Assembly (NCBI GenBank): GCA_041176225.1
Contig: JBEDDM010000001.1
Coordinates: 20,405-84,404, forward strand
Direction of reading: 5' to 3'
Source: Chloroflexota bacterium
GTDB taxonomy: Bacteria; Chloroflexota; Limnocylindria; Limnocylindrales; Limnocylindraceae
Length of the DNA stretch: 64,000 bases
Under the pieces are notes generated by a model that did not search any database, was not told where the DNA came from, and saw nothing but the letters and a program-made list of their open reading frames with translations. Positions 6,432-61,662 of the stretch are shown in pieces. A program made the translations under genes and the position numbers. How positions within the stretch are numbered: the stretch's first letter is position 1; each line of letters starts with the position of its first letter.

Positions 6432-6495
6432 TTTCGTCCACTCCTCTTCATCGGTTCACGGGCGTGTGTGCCGCGCGGTGTGCGGCACCGTCTGA

Positions 6496-9828: not shown

Positions 9829-9864
9829 AGCGGGCCGGCGCACTCGCGCCCCGCAGGTTTCGAC

Positions 9865-10415: not shown

Positions 10416-11533
10416 TCAACCGAGCGCGTCAACTGCTGCCAACGGTTCTCGTTCTGACACTCGTCGCGCTTGCTGTTGGTGCGTGCGACGCTGCCTCGGT
10501 CGTTGTTCCGCCATCTCCGCCAGCGCCTCTCGTTCCAGCATCACCAGGCGCTGATCCGTTCAGCCTCCTCTCTTGGCTGTTCACACCAGTCTTCCAGGCG
10601 CTCTTCATTGGCCTGGTCTTCTTTGACAACCTGACGGGAGATATCGGAATCTCAATTCTTTTGCTCACGATCGTCATCCGCATCGTCTTGATTTCGCCGT
10701 ACCGACGCCAACTCGTTTCACAGAAGCGCACGCAGCTACTCGCGCCAGAAGTGGAAGAGATCAAGCGTCGCTATAAAGGCGATCGAATGAAGATCCAGCA
10801 GGCGCAGGCGGAGCTGTACAAGACGCGCGGCATCAATCCGCTGAGCGGATGTCTGCCGACCCTGCTTCAGTTCATCGTGCTCATCCCAATGTATTCCGTG
10901 ATTGATCAAGGACTTAAGACGAGCGATCCAACCGCCATGCTGAGCATCTTCGGCTTTCAGGTCTTGGATCCAGGATGCGTGAACGGTCTCGCTGACGGTG
11001 TCCGCTGTTTTGACACAACAGTGGGATGGCTTGGCGGGCTTGATGTTTCGCAACCATGGGCTCCACTTATTCTTCTCGGGATCGGCATCTCCCCGCTTGC
11101 GCTCGGCAGTGCGCTGTTGCAGGTGCTACAGACGCGCATGACGCTTCCAAAGGGCGGAGCAGTAAAGGGCGATCCGGCAGCGGCAATGCAGAGCCAGACG
11201 CTGGTGATCCTGCCGCTGATCTCAATCCTGTACGGCGGCATCTTGCCAGCAGGACTCTTTATCTACTGGATTGCGTCTACGGTCTTCTCGTTGGCGCAGC
11301 AGTATTTGATCCTCGGCTACGGCGGACTCTTCCCACTCTTTGGGTGGACTCCGGCCTTCGCCGTGAACCATGCACCGCGATTCCCCGTGGCGATGCCGGA
11401 GAGCGCTCCGGCGGGCGACGTGGTTGAAGGGGCACCACAATCCCGCACGGATCTTGACCGCGCCGCATCTGCGGCCGCCACGATCCGTTCGGCCAAGAAG
11501 CGCGACCGACACGGTCGCCGAGGGGGCAGATAA
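10397..11533 (+). CDS. yidC: Membrane protein insertase YidC/Oxa1 family
   Basis: 378 aa; multi-TM with conserved YidC core; basic C-terminal tail KKRDRHGRRGGR. Confidence 0.9.
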   Translation: MGSGPMINRARQLLPTVLVLTLVALAVGACDAASVVVPPSPPAPLVPASPGADPFSLLSWLFTPVFQALFIGLVFFDNLTGDIGISILLLTIVIRIVLISPYRRQLVSQKRTQLLAPEVEEIKRRYKGDRMKIQQAQAELYKTRGINPLSGCLPTLLQFIVLIPMYSVIDQGLKTSDPTAMLSIFGFQVLDPGCVNGLADGVRCFDTTVGWLGGLDVSQPWAPLILLGIGISPLALGSALLQVLQTRMTLPKGGAVKGDPAAAMQSQTLVILPLISILYGGILPAGLFIYWIASTVFSLAQQYLILGYGGLFPLFGWTPAFAVNHAPRFPVAMPESAPAGDVVEGAPQSRTDLDRAASAAATIRSAKKRDRHGRRGGR

Positions 11534-12432
11534 TGGCGAGCGAGAGCGCATACCAGGAGTTCACAGGCAAGAGCGTTGAAGAGGCGCTCAAGATCGCATG
11601 CGAATCCTTCAAGGTTGGACTCGCCGACCTCGACTTTGAAATCATCGCGCCAGGCTCCAAGGGTGTTCTCGGCATGGGTGCTGAGCCAGCGCGGATCGTT
11701 GCAGCGCCAGCAAGCGCAATCGCAGGCAGCACGCCAAAGCGCGCGACCGAACCTGCACCACGCGCTGCGGCACCACGAGATGCTGCACCCCGCGACTCCG
11801 AACCGCGACCGGCACGCAGCGCACGAACAGAGCGTGCACCAGCGGCACGTGCGGAGCGACCCGCACGAGCACCGCGCCCTGAACGTGCTGATCGGCCAGC
11901 CCGAGCGCCGCGTGAAGCGGGCGAGACACGAGAGCCACGCGAGCGCCGCGAGCGCAGCGAGACCACACCAGAGATGATTGCCGGCGGCAAGGAGATCCTT
12001 GAGACGCTGATCAAGCACCTCGACTTTGAGGCAGAGATTCGCCTGAGCGGCGAAGGCTCCGAGACCGTGCTGAATGTGGCGGGCACGTCACCAGAAGCTG
12101 CGGAGGAACTCGGCAGCTTGATTGGCCGACGCGGCGAGCGCCTTCAGGCGATCCAGCACCTTGTCAACTTGATGTTGAGCCGCAAGCTCGGCGAGTGGGC
12201 GCGCGTGACCGTAGACATTGAAGAGTATCGTGGTCGACGTGAAGCGCAGCTCCGCGCACTTGCGCGCAAGGCGGGCGAGCGTGTTCGAGAGACCGGTCGC
12301 GCCGTTCAACTTGAGCCAATGACCGCGCTTGAGCGCCGTTGGGTGCACATGGAACTACAGGGTGCACCTGGGATTGCAACCGAGTCGGCGGGCGAAGAGC
12401 CAGAACGCCGCGTGGTCGTGATCCCGGCGTAA
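11533..12432 (+). CDS. jag: Jag/KhpB RNA-binding protein (Jag_N - disordered linker - KH - R3H)
   Basis: N-terminal Jag_N motif (MASESAYQEFTGKSVEEALKIACESF), C-terminal R3H region (…LEPMTALERRWVHMEL…); an Arg/Pro/Ala/Glu-rich linker of about 90 aa. Confidence 0.85.
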   Translation: MASESAYQEFTGKSVEEALKIACESFKVGLADLDFEIIAPGSKGVLGMGAEPARIVAAPASAIAGSTPKRATEPAPRAAAPRDAAPRDSEPRPARSARTERAPAARAERPARAPRPERADRPARAPREAGETREPRERRERSETTPEMIAGGKEILETLIKHLDFEAEIRLSGEGSETVLNVAGTSPEAAEELGSLIGRRGERLQAIQHLVNLMLSRKLGEWARVTVDIEEYRGRREAQLRALARKAGERVRETGRAVQLEPMTALERRWVHMELQGAPGIATESAGEEPERRVVVIPA

Positions 12433-13030: not shown

Positions 13031-13406
13031 TGGTGGAGATGGAGGAGAGTCGAACTCCTCGTCCGAAAAGCCTGCCAAGAGACCACTACGAGCGTGTCCT
13101 GCGGTTTAGTCTGAGTTGAGGCGCTCCCACAGGCCGGATCGACCCTCAACCGAGTCACATGCCCCTAAATCGGGCTTGATCAGTGGCTATGTGTCACTCA
13201 CCACTGTTGCAGCTTCGCTTAATGACGCTTCCACGACCCGCGAAGCGGGGGCCGCTTCCACGCTCACCTTACTGCCTTAGGCAGCGAGGGCGAGAGCAGG
13301 CTGGCGATTGCCAGTTACTTCTTTTTGCTACCGGTTTAACGAGGCCTGATAGCAACCTCGACTCGCGTTCTCAAGGTGCGGTTTCCCGTCGAAACCACGC
13401 ATCCCC
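13031..13406 (-). ncRNA. ssrA: Transfer-messenger RNA (tmRNA, SsrA)
   Basis: Minus-strand 5' end GGGGATGCGTGGTTTCGACGGG (conserved UUCGACGGG). 3' end …GGACGAGGAGTTCGACTCTCCTCCATCTCCACCA (T-arm plus acceptor plus encoded CCA). Acceptor stem GGGGAUG/CAUCUCC carries the G3:U70 Ala identity pair. Internal tag reading frame …PALALAA followed by UAA. Immediately downstream of smpB. Confidence 0.85.
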
Positions 13407-22402: not shown

Positions 22403-25141
22403 CTATCGCCGCTTGGTAGGTTTCGTCGTTGTCGTCTTCGCCGTCTTCGCCTTCACCTTAGCCGCTGGCTTCGCCTTCCCTTTGGATACGGTCTTAGGTG
22501 CCGCTTTGGCCGTGACCTTTGCAACTTTCGCACGAGGGGGACTGGCCTCCCCCTCAGGGGCCTCCTCATTCTCGCCGTCGGCGTCGCGCTTTGCTAGCCC
22601 CGTGCGGAAGGCGGCGATCCCCGCCACCTTATCCCCCTCACGGAGGGACATCACGCGTACACCCTGGGAGCTGCCGTCATTACGGGTGGCGATCGATTCG
22701 AGCTTTGTGCGCACCACCTGCCCCTCAGCGCTGATCAGGATGACCTCTTCGTCGGCCTCGCTCACCTGGCGAACGGCGACCACAGGCCCGGTCTTGCGAC
22801 CCTCAAGAGGGATGAGCCGAACGCCCTGGGTGCCGCGGTGCTTGCGGCTGAATGCTCCAACCGGGACGCGCTTTCCGAAGCCGGTCTCGGTGAGGACAAG
22901 GAGGTCGGCTCCAGGCTCCACCACCGCCGCGGCCACCACAAGGTCTCCCTGTCGAGCGATGCGGATGCCAATGACGCCGCCAGCGGAGCGCCCCATCGGT
23001 CGCGCCTCCTTCTCATGGAAGCGGCAGATGCGACCCTGTCGCGTGGCGAGCACAATGTCGTCTTCACCAGATGTTGGGATCACTTGCGCAAGCTCATCGC
23101 CCTTATCAAGGGTGATCGCGATGATTCCCGACGAGCGCACCTTCTCAAACTGCTCGAGCGCCGTCTTCTTGATGACACCCTTCTTTGTGGAGAAGGCGAG
23201 GTAGCCACCCGCACTGAAGTTCTGCAAGATCACCGTTGCAACCGGGACTTCGCCGGACTCAACCTGTACGCCAGGAAGATTGACGATCGGGATCCCCTTG
23301 TTCTGACGCGACGCGTCTGGAATCTCGTGCACCTTTGTGCTGAAGCAGCGACCCTTATTCGTGAAGAAGAAGGCCCAGTCGTGCGTGTTCGCGACCTGGA
23401 GCGACTTCACTGCGTCCTCTTCGCGGGTTGTCATCCCGCGCACGCCCTTCCCGCCGCGATGCTGCTGGCGGTATGCGGTGAGCGGCTGGCGCTTGATGTA
23501 GCCACGACCACTGATCGTGATCACCACGTCTTCGTCGGCAATGAGATCTTCATCAGACATTTCGCGGGTTGCATCTTGGGCAATTCGCGTGCGGCGCTTG
23601 TCGCCGAACTTCTCCTTCATCTTCGCGTACTCCGCCGCAATGATCTTGGAGACGCGCTTTGGATTGGCGAGGATATCTTGCAGCTCCTTGATCAGCGCGA
23701 GCACTTCCAAGTACTCGTCTTCGATCTTCTTGCGCTCGAGTGCGGCGAGCCGCGCGAGTCGCATGTCGAGGATCGCCTGCGCCTGCAGCTCGCTGAGTTT
23801 GAATTTGGCCATCAACTGTTCGCGTGCAACATCAACATCTGCGGCGGCGCGGATCGTCTTGATCACTGCATCAAGGTTGTCCAGCGCAATCTTGAGGCCT
23901 TCCAAGATGTGCGCGCGCTCTTGTGCCTTCTTCAGTTCAAACTCGGTGCGGCGGCGAACGATGATGCGGCGGTGTTCAATGTGGTGTTGCAGCACCGACT
24001 TAAGTGAGAGCGTCTGCGGCTGTCCATCAACCAGCGCGAGCATGTTCATGCTGAACGCGGCGCGGAGTGGCGTGAGCTTCAGCAACTTGTTGAGCACCTT
24101 GTGCGGATTACCGTCTCGCTTTACTTCAACGTAGATGCGCATTCCGTCGCGGTCTGATTCGTCGCGGAGATCGGAGATCCCTTCAATACGCCCCTCTTTC
24201 ACGAGGTCGGCGATCTTCTCAACGAGTGTTGCCTTGTTTACCTGGTATGGGAGCTCATGAATGATGATTGCGGTGCGATCACCGCGTGCCTCTTCGAAGC
24301 TCGTCTTCCCTTCCACAACAACACGTCCGCGACCGTGCGCGTACATCTGTCGGATCGCGTCCACGCGCTCCGACTTTCCGGTGAGTGGATTCTTGACATT
24401 GTCGTAGCGGTAGAGGACGCCGCCTGTTGGGAAGTCCGGCGCAAGGACGAGCGCACTCAACTCTTCGGCGGTGAGTTGTGGGTTTTCGACGAGAGCGATC
24501 GCGGCGTCGGCAATCTCGCCAAGGTTGTGCGGCGGAATGTTTGTTGCCATTCCAACGGCGATTCCTGCAGAACCGTTGACGAGAAGGTTTGGCATGCGCG
24601 ATGGGAGGACGCTCGGCTCCTTCTGCGTGCCGTCGTAGTTTGGCGTGAAGTCAACAGTGTCGTGATCGATGTCGGCGAGCATCTCGCCTGCGATGGCGGT
24701 GAGTCGTGCCTCGGTGTATCGCATTGCAGCGGCGGAGTCGCCGTCAACGGATCCGAAGTTTCCCTGACCATCAACGAGTGGATGGCGCATGGAGAAGTCC
24801 TGCGCCAGGCGGACAAGCGCGTCATAAAGAGCGCCGTCGCCGTGTGGATGGTACTTACCCATGACCTCACCGACGATCGCGGCGCACTTGCGATACGCGG
24901 AGCCTCCAGAGAGGCCCATCTCGCCCATGGTGTAGAGGATGCGGCGGTGAACGGGCTTGAGGCCGTCACGCACGTCTGGAAGGGCGCGGGCCACGATCAC
25001 GCTCATGGCGTAATCGAGGTAGCTCGTGCGCATCTCGTCTTCAATGCGGATCGACTTCACGCTGGTGACGCTCACGCCGCCCGGGCTGATCCCGTCTGCG
25101 CCGTTATCTACCGGACCCTTCCCTGTTGGACCCTTCGCCAT
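22403..25141 (-). CDS. gyrA: DNA gyrase subunit A, with a Lys/Ala-rich C-terminal tail
   Basis: 912 aa; active-site region …[10 protein letters not shown]…; GyrA-box beta-pinwheel repeats; tail …[42 protein letters not shown]. Confidence 0.97.
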
Positions 25142-25198
25142 CTCGTCACCTCCTTTCTTGTGTGCAATGTCTGGGCTGGTTTGATGTGATTCGTTTGA

Positions 25199-28065
<2,867 letters not shown>

Positions 28066-28084
28066 GGTCAAACCCCCCTGCTCC

Positions 28085-28921
28085 TCACGCCGCACTCCCA
28101 AAGACGCGGGTTGCGAACTCGCTTGCCGCCTGAGCATACGACTCTGCGCCGGAACTCCCTGGTGCGTAGCTCCGAATTGAAATGCCATGGCTCGGCGCCT
28201 CGGCGAGGCGCACGGAGCGGGGCACTCGAGCGCGGTAGACGAGCTCCCCAAAGTGACTCTCCACCTCTCGCACCACATCTCCGCCGAGCTTGGTGCGTGG
28301 GTCAAGCATAGTGAGTAGGAAGCCGTTGACCTCTAGATCCGGGTTGAGGCGATCACGGACAAGGCGGATCGTTGCCATCAACTGGGAGAGGCCTTCGAGC
28401 GCGTAGTATTCGCACTGCACGGGGACGAGCACCGAATCTGCCACCGCAAAGGCGCTGATTGTTACTAAACCGAGGGACGGAGGGGTGTCCACGAGCACAA
28501 CTTCCGCCTCGCCAGCCAGTCGCAGGCCCGCAGCAAGTTGGCGCTCCCCGGTCTCATCTCCTGCCGCGAGCTCAACGTCAATCCCCGCGAGGTCGGCGGA
28601 CCCTGGAATGAGGCTGAGGTTCGGGATGGAGGTCGGCTGGGCCAGCTCGTGAGCTGGACGGCGCCCAAGGAGGAGGTCGTAGGCGGTTGGGGCACCTTGC
28701 GGTGTAACAAAGCCGAGGCCACTGGTGAGGTTGCGCTGGGGGTCAAGGTCGACGACAAGGACTTTGTGCCCTGCGTGGGCGAGCTCCGCGGCAAGATTGA
28801 GCACGGTGGTGGTCTTCCCCACACCACCCTTCTGGTTGGCACAGACAATGACCTGCGCACGGCCGAGGTTCCTTGGTTCTATGACCTCTCCCACAGGTTG
28901 AGTGTAGCAGGAGGGGCTCAC
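28085..28921 (-). CDS. parA: Chromosome partitioning ATPase ParA/Soj
   Basis: Deviant Walker A KGGVGKTT; 278 aa. Confidence 0.9.
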   Translation of the reverse strand: MSPSCYTQPVGEVIEPRNLGRAQVIVCANQKGGVGKTTTVLNLAAELAHAGHKVLVVDLDPQRNLTSGLGFVTPQGAPTAYDLLLGRRPAHELAQPTSIPNLSLIPGSADLAGIDVELAAGDETGERQLAAGLRLAGEAEVVLVDTPPSLGLVTISAFAVADSVLVPVQCEYYALEGLSQLMATIRLVRDRLNPDLEVNGFLLTMLDPRTKLGGDVVREVESHFGELVYRARVPRSVRLAEAPSHGISIRSYAPGSSGAESYAQAASEFATRVFGSAA

Positions 28922-49723: not shown

Positions 49724-50473
49724 GTGCCTCTGCTCCAGCGCGAAGGCTGGCCGCAGGAGGGTGCCCCTAAGGCATTCGTTGACCTCCACTCCCACTCTTC
49801 GTCCAGCTTTGACTCACTGAGCGATCCCATCGCGCTCACGCGCGCCGCTGCAGCTCGCGGCATCACCCATCTCGCAATCACCGATCATGATCGCGTTGAC
49901 GGCGCACAACGGGCACGTGACGCGCAGATCCCCGGCATCACCGTCCTTGTTGGTTCCGAAGTGCGCACGCGTGATGGTGACATGATCGCGCTCTTCATTG
50001 AGCGACCCATCAAGGTTGGACTCCCGCCGGCGGAGGCCATCGCAGCGATTCGTGAGCAAGGCGGCCTCGTTGGAATTCCGCACCCGTTTGACGGCACACG
50101 CGGCTCGCTACTCCTCAAGGAAGAACATGCAGAACTCATCACGCTCGTTGACTGGATTGAAGGGTGGAACGCGCGACTGTGGACGCCTGGTGGCAACGCG
50201 CGTGCAGCAGCGCTTGCGGCAACACACGGGATTCCGAGCGTTGCATCGTCAGATGCGCACAGCATCATGGAGATTGGAAACGCAGCAACGGTGCTCGCTG
50301 GCGATCCATCAACGCCAGCACTGATGCGCGCGGCGCTCGCTGCGCCGCATGAACTCATCACTGGTCGTAGTGCGCTGCTCGCGCGCTTGGTGATGCCGTT
50401 TGTCAAAGTGATCAATGCGACACGTGGAAACCGACGCATCAAGCCCGGCGTCACCTACGGCGAGCAGGGATGA
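49724..50473 (+). CDS. PHP-domain (polymerase/histidinol-phosphatase-like) metal-dependent phosphoesterase
   Basis: DLHSHSSSSFD and …HLAITDHD… His/Asp motifs. Confidence 0.75.
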   Translation: MPLLQREGWPQEGAPKAFVDLHSHSSSSFDSLSDPIALTRAAAARGITHLAITDHDRVDGAQRARDAQIPGITVLVGSEVRTRDGDMIALFIERPIKVGLPPAEAIAAIREQGGLVGIPHPFDGTRGSLLLKEEHAELITLVDWIEGWNARLWTPGGNARAAALAATHGIPSVASSDAHSIMEIGNAATVLAGDPSTPALMRAALAAPHELITGRSALLARLVMPFVKVINATRGNRRIKPGVTYGEQG

Positions 50474-50486
50474 TCGGCGAGACGGA

Positions 50487-51515
50487 ATGAGCGAGGCGAA
50501 AACCTCGTTCAGCATTGGCGAGCGGATACGGCGTCCCTCAACGATCGCAGGACTTCTCTTTACCGTGGTCCTGCTGGTTGGACTCTGGCGCGCTGCGAGC
50601 GCGTTCAACCTTGATCAAGTTGCAACACTGATCGGATCCGCGAATCCACTCGCGCTGGTTGCAGCGCTTGCGGCAACACTCGCCACGCTGCTCCTTCGTG
50701 GACTGCGATGGCGCGAACTTCTCAGTGTGGTGAACCTCTCAATCTCGCGTCGTGCCGCGATTGAGATCCTCGCACTCTCTTTCTGGGTCAACGTCGTGCT
50801 GCCCGCAAAGATTGGTGACTTCTATCGCGCGTGGCTTCTGAAGCGCAATGGAGGCCCCTCGTTTGGTCGCGGTGTTGGCACCGTGGTCTTGGAGCGCGCG
50901 CTCGATCTCATCACGGTCGCACTTCTTGGTGCGCTCTCTGGCGCCGTTGCGTTCGGCGGTGAGCTTCCCGCCGCTGTGTTGGTACTGATGGTGTTTGCCC
51001 TCGCACTCGCACTGGTGGGGATCCTCGTGCTCCTTGCTGCGCGCGGTCCAGCCAGCAGGCTGAGCAAGCGGCTGCCACTTCCCAGGCAGGCCGCCGAACC
51101 ACTGGAGCGCGCCTTCGACGCGCTGAAGGAGGGGAGCACGCGCGGCGGGATCGTGCGCGTTGCACCGCACACGTGTGCGATCTGGGCGCTCCAAGCGCTG
51201 CGACTCGGCGCTGTCGCCGCTGCACTCGGACTCTTTCAGGTCGACCCAGCAGCCGGTGCGATCGGCCCTTCCGCGGTGCTCTTCACTGCGCTCGCGTCTG
51301 CCGTGTTGAGCACCGTCCCGTTCACCCCAGCAGGCTTGGGCATTGTTGAGGCGGGGAGTGTTGGCATCTTGGTTGGGATCTTCGGAATGACTCCTGAGTC
51401 GGCGATCGCCCTCATGCTGCTTGACCGCATCGCAGATATCGGCTCGCTGATGGCTGGCGGGGCCGTTCTCTTTGCCGTGTCACCATTCCGGCGCGGTGCC
51501 GGAAGTCTCCGCTAG
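50487..51515 (+). CDS. Flippase-like membrane protein (LPG_synthase_TM / UPF0104, MprF C-terminal-like)
   Basis: Polytopic protein; the conserved …GDFYRAWLL… and …PAGLGIVEAG… segments match TIGR00374-type proteins. The track start at 50415 overlaps the PHP gene; Met at 50487 is preferred. Confidence 0.65.
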   Translation: MSEAKTSFSIGERIRRPSTIAGLLFTVVLLVGLWRAASAFNLDQVATLIGSANPLALVAALAATLATLLLRGLRWRELLSVVNLSISRRAAIEILALSFWVNVVLPAKIGDFYRAWLLKRNGGPSFGRGVGTVVLERALDLITVALLGALSGAVAFGGELPAAVLVLMVFALALALVGILVLLAARGPASRLSKRLPLPRQAAEPLERAFDALKEGSTRGGIVRVAPHTCAIWALQALRLGAVAAALGLFQVDPAAGAIGPSAVLFTALASAVLSTVPFTPAGLGIVEAGSVGILVGIFGMTPESAIALMLLDRIADIGSLMAGGAVLFAVSPFRRGAGSLR

Positions 51516-53147: not shown

Positions 53148-53819
53148 TCAGCGCTCGTAGGCCACGCTCACCACGGCAATCCAGCGCACCCCTGCCACTC
53201 GCAGTGCTCGCGCCGCCTCACGCGCGGTTGCGCCACTCGTCTGGATGTCATCGACCAGCACGACGGCACTCGGTAGCTCCACGTCCTCCCTGCACGACAT
53301 GGCCCCCTGCATGATTAACGCTCGCGCGGAGCGAGTGGCGCCATGAAGGGGTTCGGTGCTTCGAACACGCGCAAGGAGCCTCCGAACGGGGAGGTGTGCA
53401 GCGGCTCCTGCTGCGGTCGCGAGCAGCGCCGCATGGTCAAAGCCGCGCTCGTGCACGCGACCCTGGTCCGTCGGGATTGGCACGAGCGTGACCTGAAACG
53501 CTGCACGTGCTGATACCTGCTTGATCGCGGGTACGAGTGCCTCACCAAGCTCCCGGGCGAGCCCCTGCACACCCCCGTACTTCATGGTGCGAATGGCCGC
53601 TCCGAGTCCGCCTTCGTAGGGGCCAAGCGCCGCAGCGGCGGAGAGGTTCCCCGCCGGCAGTGCCACCGCGCGGTCTGAGATCCACTCGGCACGACACTCC
53701 GCGCAGAGCAGCGCCCCCTCGCACTCGCAGATCCCACAACGGGGCGGAGCGAGGAGTTCAACCAACGGCGCGGCTACAGAGCGCACGAGGAGTTGGAGCT
53801 GTAGCGAAAACGTGCGCAT
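53148..53819 (-). CDS. ComF-family protein (double zinc-ribbon plus phosphoribosyltransferase domain)
   Basis: CGICEC…CAEC N-terminal Cys cluster and a PRTase motif VVLVDDIQTSGAT. The track ORF to 54011 adds a long Arg-rich leader; internal Met at 53819 is preferred. Confidence 0.75.
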   Translation of the reverse strand: MRTFSLQLQLLVRSVAAPLVELLAPPRCGICECEGALLCAECRAEWISDRAVALPAGNLSAAAALGPYEGGLGAAIRTMKYGGVQGLARELGEALVPAIKQVSARAAFQVTLVPIPTDQGRVHERGFDHAALLATAAGAAAHLPVRRLLARVRSTEPLHGATRSARALIMQGAMSCREDVELPSAVVLVDDIQTSGATAREAARALRVAGVRWIAVVSVAYER

Positions 53820-53866
53820 GCCGTGATCTTCCACGCTCAAGCGTACGGAGCGCGTACGATACGGAG

Positions 53867-54901
53867 ATGACGACCCCAGTAGGCTCCCTTGCCGTCTCCG
53901 CGACCCCGCTGGCTGGGGTGAGCAAAGACGAGTGGTCCGCGCTCTTGCAGGCCAACCCGAGCGCAAGCGCCTTTTCGCTCCGCGCGTTTCATCAGGCGTG
54001 GTGGAGCGCACACGGGGGTGGCGCGGAAGACGTCAGCATCGCTGTGCGAAGTGCATCAAGCGGCGAACTCCTCGGCTATCTCCCGCTGATGCGTCGACCG
54101 GACGGCGTGACCTACTCCGGTGCAACGCTGCACATTGATTATGCCACCGTGCTGCTCGCGCCACACACGGGCGCGCCGAGTCAAGAGTCCGATCCTGTTG
54201 CAGACGCACTTGCAACGGCACTCCTTGCGCTCAACTCGCCAATCAACATGATGCGCATTCGCCCCGCTGATGTCGCGCACGTTCGAATGGTCGCCGCAAT
54301 CCACCGCGCCGCGGTGGCTGCATCGCGCGCGGCAACATATGCGATTGAAGAGCCGGCGCCATACATTGATCTTCAAGGGATCCGCACGCTCGATGAACAT
54401 CTGGAGCGCCTTGATAAGAAGCAGCGCCACGAGATTCGGCGCAAGGTTCGCCGCGGTGAAGCGGCTGGCGTGCAGATCAGCGCGAGCGAAGATGTGCTCG
54501 CTGATCTTCCTGAGTTCGTTCGCTTGCATCGCGCGCGTTGGGGCGAACGCGGGCTCTTTACCGAAACACCTAAAGGCGTGGAAGAGGAAGTCTTCCTGCG
54601 CGAGCTCTTCGCCACAGCGCCGAGCGGCACGATCAGTATGTTGATGGCGCGAAACGATGAGTTTGGAACATTTGCAGCGGGTCTCTTCTTACGAGACGCG
54701 GGTGCGATTAGATACTGGAATGCTGGAGGCGACGCGGCCGCGCGCGCACTCTCGCCTGGAGTGCTTCTCTTCGTCCACGGCCTAACACTCGCAATTAACG
54801 AGGGACGCGCGCAGTTGGACTTTTTGCGAGGGAATGAGGCGTACAAGTACGAGTGTGGCGCAGTAGATGCGCGGGTGATGAAGTTGGAGATCCCTCGATG
54901 A
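53867..54901 (+). CDS. GNAT-fold acyltransferase of the FemAB/BioF2/CelD-like (Acetyltransf_6, PF13480) type
   Basis: C-terminal …LFVHGLTLAINEGRAQLDFLRGNEAYKYECGA is typical of PF13480. The track ORF starts at 53537 with an Arg/Pro-rich artefact; Met at 53867 (MTTPVGS…) is preferred. Confidence 0.6.
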   Translation: MTTPVGSLAVSATPLAGVSKDEWSALLQANPSASAFSLRAFHQAWWSAHGGGAEDVSIAVRSASSGELLGYLPLMRRPDGVTYSGATLHIDYATVLLAPHTGAPSQESDPVADALATALLALNSPINMMRIRPADVAHVRMVAAIHRAAVAASRAATYAIEEPAPYIDLQGIRTLDEHLERLDKKQRHEIRRKVRRGEAAGVQISASEDVLADLPEFVRLHRARWGERGLFTETPKGVEEEVFLRELFATAPSGTISMLMARNDEFGTFAAGLFLRDAGAIRYWNAGGDAAARALSPGVLLFVHGLTLAINEGRAQLDFLRGNEAYKYECGAVDARVMKLEIPR

Positions 54902-56124
54902 GCCGCATGGCTCACCAGAAGCCGTGCACGGGGCGCGCGCCTGCAGGGCCGCTCCCTGACGGCTCGCGTATCCGCGTGATGCAGCTCCTTGCCACAGGGA
55001 CCAATGGTGGGGCGCAGGAGAGCCTCGTCAATACGGTGCTGCGTCTGGATAACTCGCGCCACGATGTGTGCGTGGTTTCACTCTCGCACGGGAGCACGGT
55101 GAAGCGACTCGAACGTCTCAAGATTCCCGTTGAGGTGATTGAAGACGAGCACGATGATCGCGCGGCGGCGGCACTCGCCGAGCGGATGATCGCGCTGAAG
55201 ACGCAGGTGATCCATGCGCATATGTTCCGCGCCGATGTTGTTGCGGTATATGCGGCCGACCTTGTGGAGAAGCGCACAGGGGTTCGTCCACTTGTGGTCT
55301 CCACGCTGCACTCGAGTCGCTTCCGGTCTGCGGAGGATCGTGAACTACTGGAGAAACTCACGCCGCGTATCGACTGGCTGATCGCCGTGAGCGATGCGAT
55401 CGTGCGCAAGATCGTGGCAGAGAACCGCGACAGCACCGCCATCAGCAGGATCTACAACGGCGTGGACCTGGAACGTTTTGATGAAGCGCCTGGCCGCGAC
55501 GTCGTGCGCAAGGAGTTCGGCATCCCAAGTGACGCCCCAGTGGTGGCGGCGATTGGCCGTCTTGAGCCTGAGAAGGGGCACCCCACGCTCATTGAGGCCT
55601 GGCCGCTGGTGCACCACCATTTCCCGCAGGCGCGCCTCTTGATTGCTGGCGAGGGCTCAGAGCGCGATCGACTCGAGGGGCTCGCCGCTGCGCATCTACG
55701 CAGCGAACTCTGCTGCGACAGCGTTGCGTTCCTTGGTCGTCGTGACGACATCCCTGCGGTCTTGGCGGCAGCAGATGTGGTGGCAATGCCGAGCTACCGC
55801 GAAGCACAAGGGATCGCCATCCTTGAAGCCCTCGCAGCAGAGCGACCGGTAGTGGCGAGCAACGTGGGCGGAATTCCAGAGATGATCTCCGATGGCGAGA
55901 CAGGAATCTTAGTTCCGTCGCACGATCCATCCGCACTAGCAGCGGCGATCATTGCACTCTTCACACATCCAGATCGCGCGGCGAAACTCGCCACCGCTGG
56001 GCACGAGATGGTGCACGAAGAGTTCTGCATCGACTACATGATGCAAGATATTGAAGCGATCTATGCGCTCGCAGTAGGTGGTGATGCAACACTCGTCCCT
56101 GATCGGAACGGCGTTCGCGCGTAG
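54898..56124 (+). CDS. Family 4 (GT-B) glycosyltransferase
   Basis: …EGSERDRLEGLAAAH…, EAQGIAILEALAAERPVVASNVGGIPEMI (E-x7-E region); ATGA overlap with the preceding GNAT gene. Confidence 0.8.
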   Translation: MSRMAHQKPCTGRAPAGPLPDGSRIRVMQLLATGTNGGAQESLVNTVLRLDNSRHDVCVVSLSHGSTVKRLERLKIPVEVIEDEHDDRAAAALAERMIALKTQVIHAHMFRADVVAVYAADLVEKRTGVRPLVVSTLHSSRFRSAEDRELLEKLTPRIDWLIAVSDAIVRKIVAENRDSTAISRIYNGVDLERFDEAPGRDVVRKEFGIPSDAPVVAAIGRLEPEKGHPTLIEAWPLVHHHFPQARLLIAGEGSERDRLEGLAAAHLRSELCCDSVAFLGRRDDIPAVLAAADVVAMPSYREAQGIAILEALAAERPVVASNVGGIPEMISDGETGILVPSHDPSALAAAIIALFTHPDRAAKLATAGHEMVHEEFCIDYMMQDIEAIYALAVGGDATLVPDRNGVRA

Positions 56125-56136
56125 CGGCGCTCGCGC

Positions 56137-57225
56137 TTAGCGGCGGACAGCGCTCCAGTAGCGCTCGGCAGATCCAGAGCGACCAGTATCAAGCGCCACA
56201 CGCGCGCCGTGACCACGCACGGCGTCTGCCATCTTCTCGACTGAGCCAAAGAGGTGCGGTGTTTGCGATTCGTAAAGTGAGATCCCCTTGATCTTGGTCT
56301 CAATGACCGCACTCGTATCTACAATCTCAGGCGTCAGTGCAACATCCGCTGGCAGTTCGGCGGAATACTCTGCAGGGAGTCCACCCTGTGCGTTGAACTC
56401 GCTCCACCACGCGTATGGGAAGTCTTCATAGAACGAGATTCTGCTCGCCCAGTCGGGGCCAGGCATCTCCCACTTACGCGGTTCTGCCAGAAGTGCCGCA
56501 CCAACCTTGCGTGCGAGCTGATGATCAACATGTGATCCAATGCCGAGTGGGAAGTAGACCTGCTGCGGCTCAAGTCGCGCGATCTCCTGTGCGAGCAGTG
56601 CAACTGGTGCCACATCGCCGTCACGAACACGGCCAAGCAACTGTTCGTCACCTTCGTATCCACGGAAGACCGCGTCTGGGAGGTCAAGGAAGATCACCGC
56701 CGCCTCGCTGAAGAGTGCGTAGCGCTCATCTTCCATTTTGCGCTGCGCCATGGCGTCACCCGCCGCAGCTGCTACGGCAATGGCGCCCGGAGTTGTTGTC
56801 CCCTGTCCGCCAACCGCATCCACATCTTTTGCGTGCGGGAGTCCGCCGCCGCCACTGATATCTGCCTTGCGATACCAGGATGCGCGCTGCCAGAACTCTT
56901 TTGCGCTCGCATCCGCCTCCTGCTGCGTGGCGGCGAGCCGACCGCGCTCTGCCTGCCACGGCGCAAGCTCGCTCTCTGTTTCGCCAGGGACGTTCACGTC
57001 CGCAGCAACGGAGCCGCGATCAAAAGATTCCGTTGACGGCCAGATCGCCTTGCCACCAAAGCCGAGCGCCTGGCGCTGGTACGAGGACATGCGCGTGAGA
57101 TCACCATGCCCAGAGAAGACGCTGATGATGATCACGTTCTGCCCGAGTTCGCGCAGGTGGGCGATCAGTCCGCCACACGAGAGTGCCGCGTCATCTGGGT
57201 GTGGTGAGATGAAGATGTGGCTCAT
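56137..57225 (-). CDS. PIG-L/LmbE-family N-acetylglucosaminyl deacetylase, with an unusual ~130-aa insertion
   Basis: N-terminal ISPHPDDAALSCGG motif and a later GIGSHVDH motif; 362 aa versus about 230 typical. Confidence 0.7.
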   Translation of the reverse strand: MSHIFISPHPDDAALSCGGLIAHLRELGQNVIIISVFSGHGDLTRMSSYQRQALGFGGKAIWPSTESFDRGSVAADVNVPGETESELAPWQAERGRLAATQQEADASAKEFWQRASWYRKADISGGGGLPHAKDVDAVGGQGTTTPGAIAVAAAAGDAMAQRKMEDERYALFSEAAVIFLDLPDAVFRGYEGDEQLLGRVRDGDVAPVALLAQEIARLEPQQVYFPLGIGSHVDHQLARKVGAALLAEPRKWEMPGPDWASRISFYEDFPYAWWSEFNAQGGLPAEYSAELPADVALTPEIVDTSAVIETKIKGISLYESQTPHLFGSVEKMADAVRGHGARVALDTGRSGSAERYWSAVRR

Positions 57226-57265: not shown

Positions 57266-57445
57266 CTACGGGCTAGGCGAGACGCTCGGCGACTCGGACG
57301 CGCTCGGCGCGGGGGTCGCGGAGAGCGCCTTGGGGAACGTCTTCAAGAAGCCATCACGACCAAAGATCATTGGGTAGGCGATCACGGCCGCAATGGCGAT
57401 CGTGCAGATCAGCACGAAGGTTCGGGGTCCGCGGTCTTTGGTCAT
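57266..57445 (-). CDS. Possible 59-aa small membrane protein (below the ORF-track cutoff)
   Basis: Hand translation gives MTKDRGPRTFVLICTIAIAAVIAYPMIFGRDGFLKTFPKALSATPAPSASESPSVSPSP; one TM helix; lies between the PIG-L start and the lipoprotein gene. Confidence 0.3.
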   Translation of the reverse strand: MTKDRGPRTFVLICTIAIAAVIAYPMIFGRDGFLKTFPKALSATPAPSASESPSVSPSP

Positions 57446-57464: not shown

Positions 57465-58613
57465 TCAGCGCAGGGAGGCGTATCCGGTGAGTTCCACGTA
57501 GGCGTCGCCTCGGACTGGGCGGCCGTTTAGGCTGCCGCGCACCACGTTGGATCCCTCCCAGTAGATGACCCCAGTGGTCGCTCGCGTATCGAGCTCCTGA
57601 TCCTTCACATCTGGGGTGATCGTGACCTGCAGGCCACGCGTAGGGATCTTGAGCTCCCAGCCGGAGGGCCAGGCCGCCCCCGTGTGTGGGCTCGTCCACT
57701 CGCCGGTCGGCGTCAGCTGGATCTCACTCCCGTCGATCCGTTCAAAGTCGCCGTCTCCGTTGATCCATGTGCCGTAGATGAGCGGGTAGCTGCCGTCCGC
57801 GGCACGGACAAAGGAGAGGGTCACCTCAATCCCGCGCGCACTCCCGTTATCCAGCGTGAGTGCGAACCAGTCCCATCCGCCACCACCCACCGCAATGAAG
57901 TCACCCCACTGATGGTCGAACCAGGATGTCCCCTGCACGGCGAGAACTTCACCATCCACAGTGAGCGTTCCACCGGTTGGCATGCGCGTGCGCGAGTAGT
58001 AGTAGGAACCGCCCGCAATATCAAAGTCCACCCAGCCGTCGTTGTCGTGCAGCACAGGCGCTTCGGGTGCGGCGAGCTGCAAGTTGAACCACTCCGCATC
58101 AATCTGCATGGAACCATCAAGCCCAACGATCATGCTCCATGGATCGTTCTCCAGCGTGGCGGGACTCAACGGATCTGCGCCAGTGATGGCAAAGGCCGCA
58201 GCGATCGGCGCGTCAATCATCGCGGTGATGTCCACCTGCGGACCAATCTCGGCACGCTCGTAGTAGGTAAACGATCCTTCACGTCCACCACGCGGTTTCT
58301 CTGTCAGCGCCATGTGTGACGCCCAGGTGACAGGGAAGTCGCCGCGAATCGCGCGGAAGATGACCGCCTCATATCCAAACGCGCGCGAACCATCCAGCGT
58401 GGTCAGGTGCCCAGTGACGTACCACCACTCGGTGAGTCGATCATGCGGCGCGTCGTCGCGCGGGAACTGCACCGGTTGCGGATCATTGCGCGGCGGCGGC
58501 GGCGTCGCCTTGACGATCGGCGCGCCAGCAACGGCTGGCGGATTCGCCAAGATTGGACCAGTGCAGGCGCTCACCGTGAAGAGCGCGAACACCAGTGCCA
58601 CTACCTTCATCAT
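57465..58613 (-). CDS. Lipoprotein with a CrtC/AttH-like lipocalin-type domain
   Basis: Lipobox LFTVSAC; …HDRLTEWWYVTGHL… resembles the hydroxyneurosporene-synthase/AttH family; ATGA overlap with the upstream MMPL gene. Confidence 0.6.
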   Translation of the reverse strand: MMKVVALVFALFTVSACTGPILANPPAVAGAPIVKATPPPPRNDPQPVQFPRDDAPHDRLTEWWYVTGHLTTLDGSRAFGYEAVIFRAIRGDFPVTWASHMALTEKPRGGREGSFTYYERAEIGPQVDITAMIDAPIAAAFAITGADPLSPATLENDPWSMIVGLDGSMQIDAEWFNLQLAAPEAPVLHDNDGWVDFDIAGGSYYYSRTRMPTGGTLTVDGEVLAVQGTSWFDHQWGDFIAVGGGGWDWFALTLDNGSARGIEVTLSFVRAADGSYPLIYGTWINGDGDFERIDGSEIQLTPTGEWTSPHTGAAWPSGWELKIPTRGLQVTITPDVKDQELDTRATTGVIYWEGSNVVRGSLNGRPVRGDAYVELTGYASLR

Positions 58614-60922
58614 CGGCTGCGCGCCTCCGCTTCCGCTTCACTGGCAATGCGACCGGCGAGTAGACGCTGCATCCACTTCGGCGACCACCAGTTCCAATCA
58701 CCAAAAAGGCGCATCGTTGCAGGAACCAAGAGGGCGCGAACGATCGTTGCATCGAGTGCTACGGCAATGGCAACGCCAACACCAAGCGCTTTAATCAACA
58801 CGATCTCCGCGAAGATGAACGACGCAGAGACAACAAAGACGATGAGTGCGGCAGAGGTGATGATGCGTCCACTGCGCTCAAGGCCACCCGCAACGGCGGC
58901 CACGTTGTCACCGGTGCGATCGTAAATCTCGCGCATGCGCGTGAGTAGGAAGACTTCGTAGTCCATTGAGAGACCGAAGAGGACGCAGAACAGGATCACC
59001 GGGATTGTTGTCTCCACAAACCCGAGCGGTGCAAATCCAAGGAGTGCGGAGAGGTTCCCATCTTGGAAGATCCAGACGAGTGCGCCGAAGCTCGCAAGGA
59101 TGGAGAGCATGTTCATGAAGACCGCCTTGATCGGCAACACAATTGAACGCAACAGCACCGCGAGGATGAGCAGTGTGCTGATGATCACCACCGCGGCGGA
59201 GCGTGGGAACTCTGCGGAGATGGTGTCCACCACATCCACAATCTCCGCGGCACCACCACCAATGAGTGCCTCAACACCATCAGGTGGCGTGATCGCACTC
59301 GGTTCTCCCGCGCCGAGCGCGTCTGGCCGAGCGGCGCGTAACTCTGCAACAAGTGCGCGCGACTCTGGTCGATTCGGACCGTAGGTTGGCGTGATGGAGA
59401 TCGCGGTGAGATCGTCCTTGGTGGTGAGCGAGAGGATCTGCACGGCGAATCGATCCGGTGGCGCACCAGCGGGCGACGCGTAGAGGAGTTGGTACTGCGC
59501 AAGGTTCATGCGCGGGTCAATGGAGACGAACGATTCCACACGCGCAATCCGCGGATCCGCCTGCATCTTCTGCACCCAGTTGTAGAGGAGGGTGATGTTC
59601 TCGGGGCTCGTGGCAGGTCCTTCGGTGCGAACGGCAATACTCATTGGACCGAACGAACCTTCACCGAAGGCCTCGGTCAGCGCGTCGAGCGCCTGCCTGC
59701 TCGGCACGCGTTCAGGGAGGACGCTCCCGTCAGGCGCGTTGAAGCGGACGCCGAGCCACGGGGTGCCGAGCGCCACCAGGAGCGCAAAGGTGGGGAGCGC
59801 CACGGCGAGTGGCCGGCGCATCACGGCGCGTGCGAGGCGGGCCCACGGCCCCTGCTCGTTCACCCGACCGCTGCCGAGCTTCCGGATGGCGAGGCGATTC
59901 ACCCGTGTGCCGAGCAGGCTCAGGAGGGCGGGCATCAGGGTGATGCTTGCGGCAACGGCAATGGAGACGGTTACCGCGCCCGCAATGCCAATGCTGCGCA
60001 GGATCGCAAAGTCGAAGAGGGCGAGCCCAGCAAGGCCGAGCATGACGGTCACGCCAGAGAAGAAGACGGCGCGTCCGGCGGTGGCCACCGTTCGTTGCAC
60101 TGCGTCGCCAATCGCCGCACCGCGCCCGAGCTCTTCACGGAAGCGAGAGACGAGCAGCAGCGCGTAGTCAACGCCAAGGCCGAGTCCGAGCAGTGTGGTG
60201 AGGTTCAACACGAAGATGCTCATGCGCGTTGCCTGCGCAATGCCGAAGATTGCGGCGAGCCCAACGATCACCGTTGCGCCACCAACGGCGAGTGGGAGTC
60301 CGGCGGCGACGGCGGAGCCAAACACCAACAGTAAGACGATCGCAGCGAGCGGGAGGCTGATCAGCTCGCTGCGCTGAAGATCTGTCTCCGAAACACTCTG
60401 AATGTCTGCATAGAACGAAGGACCGCCAGCGATTGCAACCTTGATCCCTGGAACCGACTTGATCGCCGCCTGGATCCCTTCAAGCGCCGCGGGCGAATCA
60501 TCGGGCTTCAAGTCGAGCAGGATCACGTCGTAGACGATCTTCTTATCAACGTTGACTTGCGACGGTGCAATCAGATGAGAGCGCGAGCCAACCACATGGG
60601 GCGCCTTCAGCACGCCAGCGACCGCCTCTCCTGCCGCAACTTCAAACTGCGGTGTGCCAGGGATGAACGTCTCTGAGCTGATCGCAAGCACAAGTGCCGA
60701 TGGTGGCGCGCTGAGCTCTTCTTCAAGGATCGCGCGCGCCCGCGCGCTCTCAAGCGTTGGCAGGTCGAAGCCGCCCGCTTGCAGTGCACCTGGCGCCTGC
60801 GGTGCAAATGGGAGTGCACATGCAATCAGCAGCACCCATGCGCCAATGACCCAGGTGCGGCGCGCATGCACCCATGCACCGAGTCGTTCAAACGGTGGGA
60901 GCGGAGCGGTGCGCTTCGCCAC
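58610..60922 (-). CDS. MMPL-family (RND superfamily) membrane transporter
   Basis: Two 6-TM bundles each followed by periplasmic domains. The track ORF runs to 61072; a GTG at 60922 forms a TAGTG overlap with the upstream metallophosphoesterase stop and is the preferred start. Confidence 0.85.
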   Translation of the reverse strand: MAKRTAPLPPFERLGAWVHARRTWVIGAWVLLIACALPFAPQAPGALQAGGFDLPTLESARARAILEEELSAPPSALVLAISSETFIPGTPQFEVAAGEAVAGVLKAPHVVGSRSHLIAPSQVNVDKKIVYDVILLDLKPDDSPAALEGIQAAIKSVPGIKVAIAGGPSFYADIQSVSETDLQRSELISLPLAAIVLLLVFGSAVAAGLPLAVGGATVIVGLAAIFGIAQATRMSIFVLNLTTLLGLGLGVDYALLLVSRFREELGRGAAIGDAVQRTVATAGRAVFFSGVTVMLGLAGLALFDFAILRSIGIAGAVTVSIAVAASITLMPALLSLLGTRVNRLAIRKLGSGRVNEQGPWARLARAVMRRPLAVALPTFALLVALGTPWLGVRFNAPDGSVLPERVPSRQALDALTEAFGEGSFGPMSIAVRTEGPATSPENITLLYNWVQKMQADPRIARVESFVSIDPRMNLAQYQLLYASPAGAPPDRFAVQILSLTTKDDLTAISITPTYGPNRPESRALVAELRAARPDALGAGEPSAITPPDGVEALIGGGAAEIVDVVDTISAEFPRSAAVVIISTLLILAVLLRSIVLPIKAVFMNMLSILASFGALVWIFQDGNLSALLGFAPLGFVETTIPVILFCVLFGLSMDYEVFLLTRMREIYDRTGDNVAAVAGGLERSGRIITSAALIVFVVSASFIFAEIVLIKALGVGVAIAVALDATIVRALLVPATMRLFGDWNWWSPKWMQRLLAGRIASEAEAEARSR

Positions 60923-61662
60923 TATCTGCCCACCGCAAGTCGCGATGCGAGTGAGTCGGGGAGCCCTGCGGCGTCGATCGCTTCTTGTGCACTCGGAATG
61001 TCGTACTCCACACGGCGCCACATCACGCGGCCAAGACCCGCGCTTGCTTCGTCGCGCTCCCAGAGCAGCCATGCGGCGCGCGGATCTCTGTCGCGCGGTT
61101 GACCAACAGATCCAGCATTCACCAGTGATGCGCCGTGCAGCGGGATCGGATCTTTGCTCACCGCAGTCAGATGCGCAACTTCGCCGCGCAACTCCCAGAT
61201 TGCTGGGATGTGCGTATGCCCATGGAAGAGGAGTGGCGTGTTGAGTCCGCGCAGATTCTCTTCTGCCGTAGCGGCATCAATGACGTACTCCATGATCGGA
61301 TCACGGAGCGACGCGTGCACCAGCGTTGCTGAGCCCATCTCTAGAACGCGCGGAAGTGCACGCAACCACTCTCTACTTGGTGCGGTGAGCACCTCACGCG
61401 TCCACATTGCCGCCGCATAGGCACCTTCGTTGAAGCTCTCCACAATCTCATCACCGAGTGCGGCAAGGTCGTGATTCCCCATCACGCCGGTTGCACCCAC
61501 GCGTTGCAACTCTTCAATCACCTCGTTCGGTGAGGCCCCGTATCCAACCACATCCCCGCAGTGCCAGATCGGCGCGTGCGGCGCAACCTTCGCAACATCA
61601 TCAAGCACGGCGCGCAGCGCCTGGATGTTGGCGTGCACGTCAGAGAGGATGACGACGCTCAT
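60922..61662 (-). CDS. Calcineurin-like metallophosphoesterase (YfcE/MPP_superfamily)
   Basis: MSVVILSDVHAN…GDVVGYG…GNHD motifs. Confidence 0.85.
   Translation of the reverse strand: MSVVILSDVHANIQALRAVLDDVAKVAPHAPIWHCGDVVGYGASPNEVIEELQRVGATGVMGNHDLAALGDEIVESFNEGAYAAAMWTREVLTAPSREWLRALPRVLEMGSATLVHASLRDPIMEYVIDAATAEENLRGLNTPLLFHGHTHIPAIWELRGEVAHLTAVSKDPIPLHGASLVNAGSVGQPRDRDPRAAWLLWERDEASAGLGRVMWRRVEYDIPSAQEAIDAAGLPDSLASRLAVGR

Follow-up and report, generated by a model that had tools for sequence, protein, structure and literature searches.

A GT4-family glycosyltransferase together with a PIG-L-type deacetylase forms the core of both the mycothiol and the bacillithiol pathways. Such a pair, accompanied by a PF13480-type GNAT protein, is encoded within positions 53148–57225 of a 64,000-nucleotide stretch of Chloroflexota DNA (GenBank assembly GCA_041176225.1, contig JBEDDM010000001.1, positions 20,405 to 84,404; hereafter 'the window'), and it raises the question of what the three enzymes make together. 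The initial annotation, made from the sequence of the window, had suggested a variant low-molecular-weight thiol pathway or, as an alternative, a glycolipid- or peptidoglycan-decorating pathway. Our comparisons with related genomes and enzyme families point to the cell envelope: we put the chances at about even that the trio of GNAT, GT4 and PIG-L forms the conserved core of a pathway by which the class Limnocylindria makes a cell-envelope glycoconjugate, and its product is most likely a cell-envelope glycolipid or glycan and not an antioxidant thiol.

Genomic context of the trio

The segment 53148–57225 codes for a ComF-like protein (minus strand), the PF13480 GNAT (plus), the GT4 glycosyltransferase (plus) and the PIG-L deacetylase (minus), all four of which we found where the initial annotation had placed them (Table 1). 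The translational coupling of GNAT to GT4 read from this stretch also held up: the GNAT stop codon and the GT4 start codon share an ATGA (54898–54901), and an overlap of this kind (ATGA or GTGA) was present in 13 of the 20 related loci checked, while in six of the seven non-overlapping loci the nearest candidate GT4 start lay no more than 3 nt from the GNAT stop. The N-terminal extension of GT4 is likewise conserved (motif PC..GPLPDG..RIRVxxLLATGTNGGAQE). Because the overlap recurs and the extension is conserved, we place the GT4 start at 54898 and not at 54976; the JGI gene call, made on an identical contig, starts the gene at the GTG at 54976, 27 codons later, giving a protein of 381 instead of 408 amino acids. 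GT4 and PIG-L lie tail-to-tail on opposite strands, their stop codons 12 bp apart, and are therefore not co-transcribed as parts of one operon. Promoter, terminator and inverted-repeat scans of the GT4/PIG-L junction gave nothing above background and no hairpin, and Rfam returned no riboswitch near the cluster. On its own strand, PIG-L is the last gene of a tightly packed series that also comprises DedA/VTT, Metallophos, MMPL and lipocalin genes and a 59-codon open reading frame (ORF).

The window belongs to Candidatus Limnocylindrus (Chloroflexota); its proteins are 96–99% identical to those of metagenome-assembled genomes (MAGs) of that name, and the arrangement at 53148–57225 is conserved within Limnocylindrus and Aquidulcis. 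A GT4 orthologue (47–56% identity) was found near PIG-L in all six closer loci with full flanks and in 21 of 34 distant loci (40–65% PIG-L identity, counted where the downstream flank was at least 7.9 kb), the distance between PIG-L and GT4 varying from 0.5 to 7.7 kb. The two genes are convergent in every locus that carries both, and in the distant loci GNAT lies upstream of GT4 in every case where the flank is long enough. Interspersed with or flanking the trio are genes for GT87 enzymes (1–4 copies), PF04188 (Mannosyl_trans2), PMT_2 and GT2 proteins, a UDP-glucose dehydrogenase, an epimerase, a methyltransferase and PF03706 flippase-like proteins, as well as families with multiple transmembrane (TM) segments that have either no Pfam match or weak GT-C matches. 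This company of GT-C, GT2, UDP-sugar and PF03706 genes in relatives supports the glycolipid or envelope-decoration alternative of the initial annotation. Orthologues of PIG-L that do not carry the insertion described below (P0247 in locus L093, P0396 in L094/L095; 47–50% identity) retain the order PIG-L> <GT4 <GNAT, followed on the upstream side of GNAT by GT87 and GT2 genes and then by PMT_2, and in an Anaerolineae MAG a 32%-identical PIG-L adjoins a PMT_2 GT-C gene. Given this comparative context, PIG-L and GNAT–GT4 are the constant elements of the locus, and the envelope-glycosylation genes that they bracket are its variable part. Limnocylindrus, with its streamlined genome, does not have these intervening genes, and PIG-L and GNAT–GT4 lie directly next to each other.

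A 432-residue gene with no Pfam match in L094 was considered as a break in the GNAT–GT4 pairing and dismissed, since BLAST identified it as the GT4 orthologue (52% identity). Some of the related loci also hold a family of ~500 residues with 7–11 TM segments by a simple hydropathy scan and no Pfam match even at E = 1 (L087:11153-12688, L090:17074-18657 and L086:12173-13651; 42–45% mutually identical), whose gene lies directly downstream of GT4 in L087 and L090 and two genes away in L086. No homologue of it was found in the 64-kb window. It is possible that these proteins are partners of a GT-C or polymerase-like kind not yet recognised as such. Unexpected titles stand on the Limnocylindria-type loci L019 and L047 ('Thermoflexus hugenholtzii JAD2 isolate MH-08apr19-222', 'Candidatus Polarisedimenticolia'), and two protein matches are named 'Candidatus Binatus'; mis-binning or mislabelling of such records is likely.

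Enzyme families and motifs

GT4 belongs to its family by both Pfam domains, which score above their gathering thresholds (Glycos_transf_1, E = 7e-41, 140.1 bits; Glyco_transf_4, E = 6e-14, 52.9 bits), and by an intact E-x7-E motif (E302-AQGIAIL-E310, counting from M1 at 54898), both glutamates of which are invariant in 17 orthologues. We took an additional match to PF20706 (GT4-conflict) as generic GT4 cross-matching and set it aside. No NCBIfam equivalog reaches its cut-off: the best model is stp2 (TIGR03088; 148 bits versus a cut-off of 409), followed by BshA (TIGR03999; 137 versus 273.7), with MshA (TIGR03449; 110 versus 462.5) and the glucosaminyl-phosphatidylglycerol (GlcN-PG) synthase model GlcN_PG_synth / GpgS (NF053787; 72.7 versus 480) lower still. 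When the profile of the 17 orthologues was compared with PDB sequences, BshA came first (143 bits), ahead of MshA (117) and PimB' (116), a ranking that fits a donor of the UDP-N-acetylglucosamine (UDP-GlcNAc) type without being diagnostic of it. The initial annotation had named exopolysaccharide (EPS) and lipopolysaccharide glycosyltransferases as the families whose match would speak for a non-thiol role. GT4 sorts with them in part: its best named match, stp2, comes from an EPS locus, whereas BshA is a close second and the best solved relative.

The GNAT protein matches PF13480 (E = 3e-23, 83 bits versus a gathering threshold of 22) and, weakly, FemAB_like. Among 15 orthologues, PF13480 was matched by all, FemAB_like by 14, Mig-14 by 13, FemAB by seven and LPG_synthase_C, the C-terminal domain of MprF, by two; all but the PF13480 matches are sub-threshold, though recurrent. 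The window copy has no NCBIfam match at E ≤ 0.01, MshD included, while 10 of the 15 orthologues match TIGR03019 (pepcterm_femAB; best E 1.5e-6, no match for the window copy), and at E ≤ 1 the orthologues match nothing in NCBIfam but pepcterm_femAB, BspF and one spurious dihydroorotase model. These matches, as well as the JGI label CelD/BcsL, agree with the initial description of the protein as FemAB/CelD-type rather than MshD. PDB sequence searches with the single sequence and with the profile gave spurious matches only and no solved relative, and literature searches on PF13480, 6IIY and the Limnocylindria cell wall yielded nothing informative about function. On the strength of its family relationships, we propose that the GNAT is an N-acyl or N-aminoacyl transferase. 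The named families nearest to the two coupled genes, stp2 for GT4 and pepcterm_femAB for GNAT, belong to one type of locus, which supports an envelope role.

PIG-L exceeds the PF02585 gathering threshold (28.2 bits) with a match limited to amino acids 5–51 (E = 3e-14), and its intact HPDD and HxDH motifs and Rossmann-like fold place it in the PIG-L/LmbE superfamily. Neither a TM segment nor a signal peptide is evident from its sequence, so it is apparently cytoplasmic. The two catalytic motifs are separated by 223 residues; by alignment, the corresponding spacing is 98 residues in TT1542, 145 in Orf2*T and ~143 in the nearest insertion-less orthologues, so that the window protein exceeds TT1542 by ~125 residues and Orf2* and the nearest orthologues by ~80. 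In the alignments, residues ~59–146 are missing from the nearest orthologues P0247, P0255, P0257, P0264 and P0265, and the shorter relatives have a YQRxALGFG motif but not this segment. The lineage-specific insertion is therefore 80–90 residues long. The ~130 residues given in the initial annotation stand when the protein is compared with a minimal PIG-L such as TT1542, and shrink to these 80–90 when only the lineage-specific part is counted.

Although the insertion had been called atypical, it is normal within its lineage. When 1.84 billion cluster representatives were searched exhaustively, 2,552 matches came back; only about three clusters at the 50%-identity level are full-length and have the insertion, and the next relatives are 255–296 residues long and 36–51% identical. 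More than 2,000 full-length homologues were collected, the best 120 of which are nearly all ~360 residues long, and tblastn located relatives in 540 species genomes. Within the insertion, the block 111–120 (FWQRASWYRK) has a column identity of 0.94, on a par with the catalytic motifs, and L97, T100, Q101, D105, F111–R114 and S116–Y118 are invariant. Two apparent distant carriers of the insertion, P0288 and P0291, were discarded as they look frame-shifted or mis-assembled; in both, clear homology alternates with non-aligning stretches rich in Arg, Pro and Ser.

Structure prediction, which the initial annotation had called for, was informative in part. AlphaFold2 with 112 sequences modelled the PIG-L core confidently, with a predicted local distance difference test (pLDDT) score of at least 90 in most core blocks, and rendered the insertion with low to moderate confidence as a loop, a long helix (residues 94–123) and a disordered linker, leaving the flanking loops unmodelled. 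This model supersedes an earlier one from a 22-sequence alignment (pLDDT 62), in which the core helix was unresolved. The nearest folds are those of Dbv21 and Orf2*. We considered the helix as an amphipathic membrane anchor and rejected the idea, because its hydrophobic moment stays below 0.3 across residues 85–123.

Proposed pathway and alternatives

The family assignments and the conserved context suggest the following pathway. On the cytoplasmic face of the membrane, GT4 would attach N-acetylglucosamine (GlcNAc) to a lipid-linked acceptor, with UDP-GlcNAc as the probable donor; a membrane glycerolipid and a polyprenyl-linked primer are both conceivable acceptors. PIG-L would strip the N-acetyl group and leave a free amine, which the FemX/CelD-type GNAT, co-translated with GT4, would re-acylate using an acyl-CoA or an aminoacyl-tRNA as the donor. 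We infer that the three enzymes act on one shared substrate and in this order. The product would be flipped or exported, and in larger-genome relatives GT-C enzymes that use polyprenyl-phosphate sugars may extend it outside the membrane, whereas streamlined Limnocylindrus would have lost the genes for this variable extension that separate PIG-L from GT4 in relatives and been left with the core. The 80–90-residue insertion of PIG-L may be a lineage-specific element that binds the substrate or a partner.

Several observations weigh against this pathway. PIG-L and GNAT–GT4 are encoded on opposite strands, and 13 of the 34 distant loci have no GT4 gene within ~8 kb of PIG-L; PIG-L could therefore be a mere conserved flank. 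It is also syntenic with unrelated left-hand genes for PCMT, a DUF5317-MFS protein and an HD protein, and no polyprenyl-phosphate GT2 or GT-C gene adjoins the trio in the window. The relatives of GT4 include, at similar scores, the GDP-mannose users PimB' and PimA, and the donor of the GNAT is ambiguous, the PF13480-type model BspF being named a crotonyl transferase by NCBIfam. Because PIG-L keeps its left-hand synteny too, it is a real, if in our judgement unlikely, possibility that there is no shared pathway. PIG-L would then belong to the left-hand block (the small membrane protein, PCMT and MFS, and here the MMPL operon), GNAT–GT4 would be a separate two-gene EPS or glycan module, and their abutment in Limnocylindrus would result from a streamlining deletion. 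The absence of a shared promoter for two units 12 bp apart on opposite strands fits such an arrangement, as do the variable distance in distant loci (0.5 to more than 8 kb, with the 13 loci that have no GT4 in the flank), a left-hand synteny of PIG-L at least as stable as the right-hand one, and the named counterparts of GNAT–GT4 in PEP-CTERM EPS loci, in which PIG-L is not involved. It accounts less well for the convergent layout, which persists down to the insertion-less orthologues, for the Anaerolineae PIG-L beside PMT_2, which is an independent tie to envelope glycosylation, and for the proximity of a deacetylase to a likely N-acylating enzyme, which is a recurrent biochemical pairing.

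A variant thiol pathway, in which GT4 would make a GlcNAc-X conjugate in the manner of BshA or MshA and PIG-L would act as BshB or MshB does, is very unlikely. Beyond the GT4–PIG-L pairing itself, it draws on BshA as the second-best NCBIfam match of GT4 (137 bits) and the best solved relative of its profile (143 bits), and on the ability of FemX-type enzymes to transfer aminoacyl groups to amines, which is the chemistry required; the cysteine ligase could possibly be encoded elsewhere or be replaced by the FemX-like GNAT using Cys-tRNA. The profile comparison with MshA, MshB, MshD, BshA and BshB, however, placed none of the three enzymes in these families: PIG-L scored 30 bits against BshB1 (TIGR04001, cut-off 182.5) and 16 against MshB (TIGR03445, cut-off 224.4) and did not reach the 195.3-bit cut-off of BshB2 (TIGR04000), so that every Bsh and Msh equivalog falls far short of its cut-off. 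Neither an MshC-like domain (tRNA-synt_1e; MshC is a paralogue of cysteinyl-tRNA synthetase) nor the BshC Pfam domain was present in the ~45 window proteins scanned, short ORFs excluded, and within that scope the absence of an MshC or BshC ligase noted initially is confirmed. In related genomes, moreover, the trio sits in membrane and extracytoplasmic glycosylation loci, a setting not expected of a soluble cytoplasmic thiol. In practice the outcome for the thiol proposal is negative, as nothing specific favours a new low-molecular-weight thiol pathway. We give even less weight to protein glycosylation, which we hold to be highly improbable. Here the trio would make or tailor an amino-sugar on a substrate protein, such as the small protein with a Pro/Ser/Thr/Ala tail encoded next to PIG-L or similar envelope proteins. 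Synteny of the tailed protein with PIG-L extends across the class, genes for PMT_2-type protein mannosyltransferases occur in related loci, and GT4 has a weak match to enzymes that O-glycosylate Ser-rich adhesins (SdgA, 42 bits). Set against these, the positive-inside rule predicts the tail to lie outside the cell, whereas export signals are lacking in GT4, PIG-L and GNAT; the window proteins scanned include no PMT_2 enzyme, and the argument is one from architecture.

Returning to the envelope glycoconjugate, a bolder version of it, which we consider improbable, has the GNAT use an aminoacyl-tRNA to aminoacylate the amine made by GT4 and PIG-L. This would yield an N-aminoacyl-glucosamine envelope lipid of an undescribed class or, at the extreme, a Cys-GlcN thiol made with no MshC/BshC-type ligase, and the PIG-L insertion would serve as a docking element that passes the substrate between the enzymes.

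What is new about the locus is the combination of enzyme families whose joint pathway is uncharacterised with a lineage-specific, motif-bearing insertion in PIG-L. Limnocylindria are among the most abundant Chloroflexota of freshwater and soil; to our knowledge, the class has no cultured model organism and nothing is known of its envelope chemistry. Since the trio has survived genome streamlining here, and in relatives frames a glycosyltransferase block of varying content, it is a good entry point to the surface glycolipid or lipoglycan of the class. It also offers a route to a first function for a CelD/BcsL-type GNAT of PF13480, a large and almost uncharacterised family.

Neighbouring genes and the rest of the window

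The ComF-like protein does not reach the cut-off of TIGR00201 (53 versus 233.55 bits) and has weak Pribosyltran and zinc-ribbon matches. The JGI gene call shortens it to 145 residues from ~222 (53585–53816 affected); conservation favours the longer form. Its adjacency is kept at about genus level only, and it does not lie beside GNAT in any distant locus for which the genes were read. As the adjacency is not conserved, we rejected ComF as a member of the module and regard it as merely a neighbour.

The small membrane protein encoded immediately upstream of PIG-L consists of a basic 'DRGPR' segment, a TM helix, a G-x-DGF motif and a tail rich in Pro, Ser, Thr and Ala (e.g. TPAPSASESPSVSPSP). 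This architecture was present at the matching position in all 30 closer loci (70–100% PIG-L identity) and in eight of 16 distant loci, including L094, where PIG-L is insertion-less. The loci concerned are L005-L036, L085, L090-L092 and L094:451-1200, and the distant genomes encode versions with longer acidic N-termini. The protein could be a partner of PIG-L, a glycosylation substrate or a spacer protein. Further upstream, the MMPL and lipocalin genes precede the small ORF and PIG-L in synteny only at 70% PIG-L identity or above (approximately the genus). They form a putative lipid-export pair, and the same-strand run that ends in PIG-L fits lipid export.

On the other side of the trio, a stand-alone gene of PF03706, a family of MprF-type flippase-like proteins, lies 2.4 kb from GNAT, with conserved synteny in the closer loci; another member of the family accompanies a GT2 gene in the variable part of L085. 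The PF03706 protein resembles GpgF, and by this analogy we regard it as a candidate flippase for the trio.

Table 1. Genes and motifs of the trio and its neighbours (window coordinates)
Feature	Position	Strand	Details
PF03706 (LPG_synthase_TM) flippase-like membrane protein	50415–51515	+	PF03706 E = 3e-41; TIGR00374
ComF-like phosphoribosyltransferase	53148–~53816 (ORF to 54011)	-	zinc-ribbon and phosphoribosyltransferase architecture
PF13480 GNAT	53867–54901	+	344 amino acids; FemX/CelD-type, putative tandem-GNAT protein
GT4 retaining glycosyltransferase	54898–56124	+	408 amino acids; coupled to GNAT via ATGA overlap
PIG-L/LmbE-family de-N-acetylase	56137–57225	-	362 amino acids; convergent with GT4
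HVDH (HxDH) motif of PIG-L	56521–56532	-	H232-V-D-H235
Lineage-specific PIG-L insertion	56788–57051	-	amino acids ~59–146; motif F111-W-Q-R-x-S-W-Y118
HPDD metal-binding/catalytic motif of PIG-L	57190–57201	-	H9-P-D-D12
Small single-pass membrane protein	57266–57445	-	59 amino acids; immediately upstream of PIG-L; JGI-called
AttH/CrtC-type (double-)lipocalin protein	57465–58613	-	lipoprotein-type N-terminus (…TVSAC); Pfam
MMPL transporter	58610–61072	-	Pfam; 4-bp overlap with lipocalin gene

The remainder of the window is housekeeping DNA near the replication origin, with dnaA, dnaN, recF, gyrBA, parAB, yidC and secA as well as PBP2/RodA, ATP synthase, murA, mreB and tmRNA genes. The origin region comprises 5271–12432 (recF, dnaN, dnaA, yidC, jag) and 22403–28921 (gyrA, gyrB, parB, parA); a gap of ~1 kb between dnaA and yidC (9343–10397), with no ORF of at least 200 amino acids, is a candidate site of oriC and rpmH/rnpA. 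The tmRNA gene lies at 13031–13406 on the minus strand (Rfam RF00023, 119 bits) and was not reported by ARAGORN, which detected no tRNA gene anywhere in the 64 kb. Adjoining recF, dnaN and dnaA is an 823-residue ORF (2443–4914, minus strand) with one predicted TM segment and no Pfam match at E ≤ 1e-4. At the edge of the window, a GT2 gene (1133–1879, plus strand) diverges from a truncated membrane protein gene (~580–1026, minus strand) whose product is weakly like the GT87-like proteins of distant loci (tblastn E = 1e-4). These two genes at 1–1879 may be a relocated remnant of the polyprenyl-phosphate-sugar branch.

Comparison with known systems

The bacillithiol and mycothiol systems have the GT4 and PIG-L pair in common with the window trio and differ from it in that the GNAT of the trio is FemX/CelD-type and not MshD-type and that its context is envelope glycosylation. 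The lipoglycopeptide pseudoaglycone deacetylases Dbv21 and Orf2*, which belong to the PIG-L/LmbE family like the window protein, are ~270 residues long, do not have the insertion at residues 59–146, act on a glycopeptide aglycone and are encoded in antibiotic gene clusters. Both act before N-acylation, and their partner acyltransferase is not known to be of the PF13480 type. The EPS loci of the PEP-CTERM/XrtA type supply the best named relatives of GT4 and GNAT, stp2 (TIGR03088) and a FemAB-family protein (TIGR03019), but the scores of the window proteins and their orthologues are far under the cut-offs of these families, which are themselves biochemically uncharacterised. As far as is known, the PEP-CTERM/XrtA loci use CE4-type deacetylases rather than PIG-L.

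Closer in logic are systems that build and modify a GlcNAc-lipid or a GlcNAc-containing envelope polymer. In Pseudomonas aeruginosa, the GpgSDF system combines a GT4 enzyme, a deacetylase and a PF03706-type flippase to produce GlcN-PG (PMC12713373). GpgSDF and the HexSDF system for the aminohexosyl glycolipid of Clostridioides difficile share with the pathway proposed for the trio a GT4 enzyme that attaches GlcNAc to a membrane lipid, a deacetylase that yields the cationic GlcN-lipid and a PF03706/COG0392 flippase-like protein, the PF03706 gene of the window being 2.4 kb away; unlike PIG-L, GpgD is a COG3233-type deacetylase, and the GNAT step is absent. In the Caulobacter holdfast system, HfsK is a FemX-like GNAT proposed to acylate the amines exposed by the deacetylase HfsH (PMC5362036). 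The trio can be likened, by description, to this pairing of a deacetylase with a FemX-like tandem GNAT on a GlcNAc-containing envelope polymer; HfsH, however, is a CE4 enzyme, and HfsK is regulated by c-di-GMP via its C-terminal tail. In the tunicamycin cluster, tunC, tunD and tunE encode, in this order, an N-acyltransferase, a GlcNAc-adding glycosyltransferase and an N-deacetylase (PMC6105854, PMC6965331), so that the gene order matches that of the window trio and the three activities match those proposed for it. This likeness is one of activities and gene order, and the tunicamycin cluster differs in making a secondary metabolite with radical-SAM and nucleotide chemistry.

Finally, the glycosylphosphatidylinositol (GPI) core pathway (PIG-A of GT4, PIG-L, and the GT-C enzymes PIG-V and PIG-M) and the actinobacterial pathway of phosphatidylinositol mannosides (PIM), lipomannan and lipoarabinomannan (PimA and PimB' of GT4, PimE of GT87) proceed from cytoplasmic GT4 steps on a lipid to extracytoplasmic GT-C steps that draw on polyprenyl-phosphate sugars. 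PIG-L, Mannosyl_trans2 (PF04188), GT87 and GT2 proteins all occur in the loci related to the window, a likeness of family composition only, and PimB' and PimA are among the solved relatives of the window GT4. Unlike in these pathways, a phosphatidylinositol or inositol acceptor is not indicated for the trio. Taking these systems together, we infer that the Limnocylindria trio is an uncharacterised variant of a known logic in which a substrate is glycosylated, deacetylated and re-acylated.

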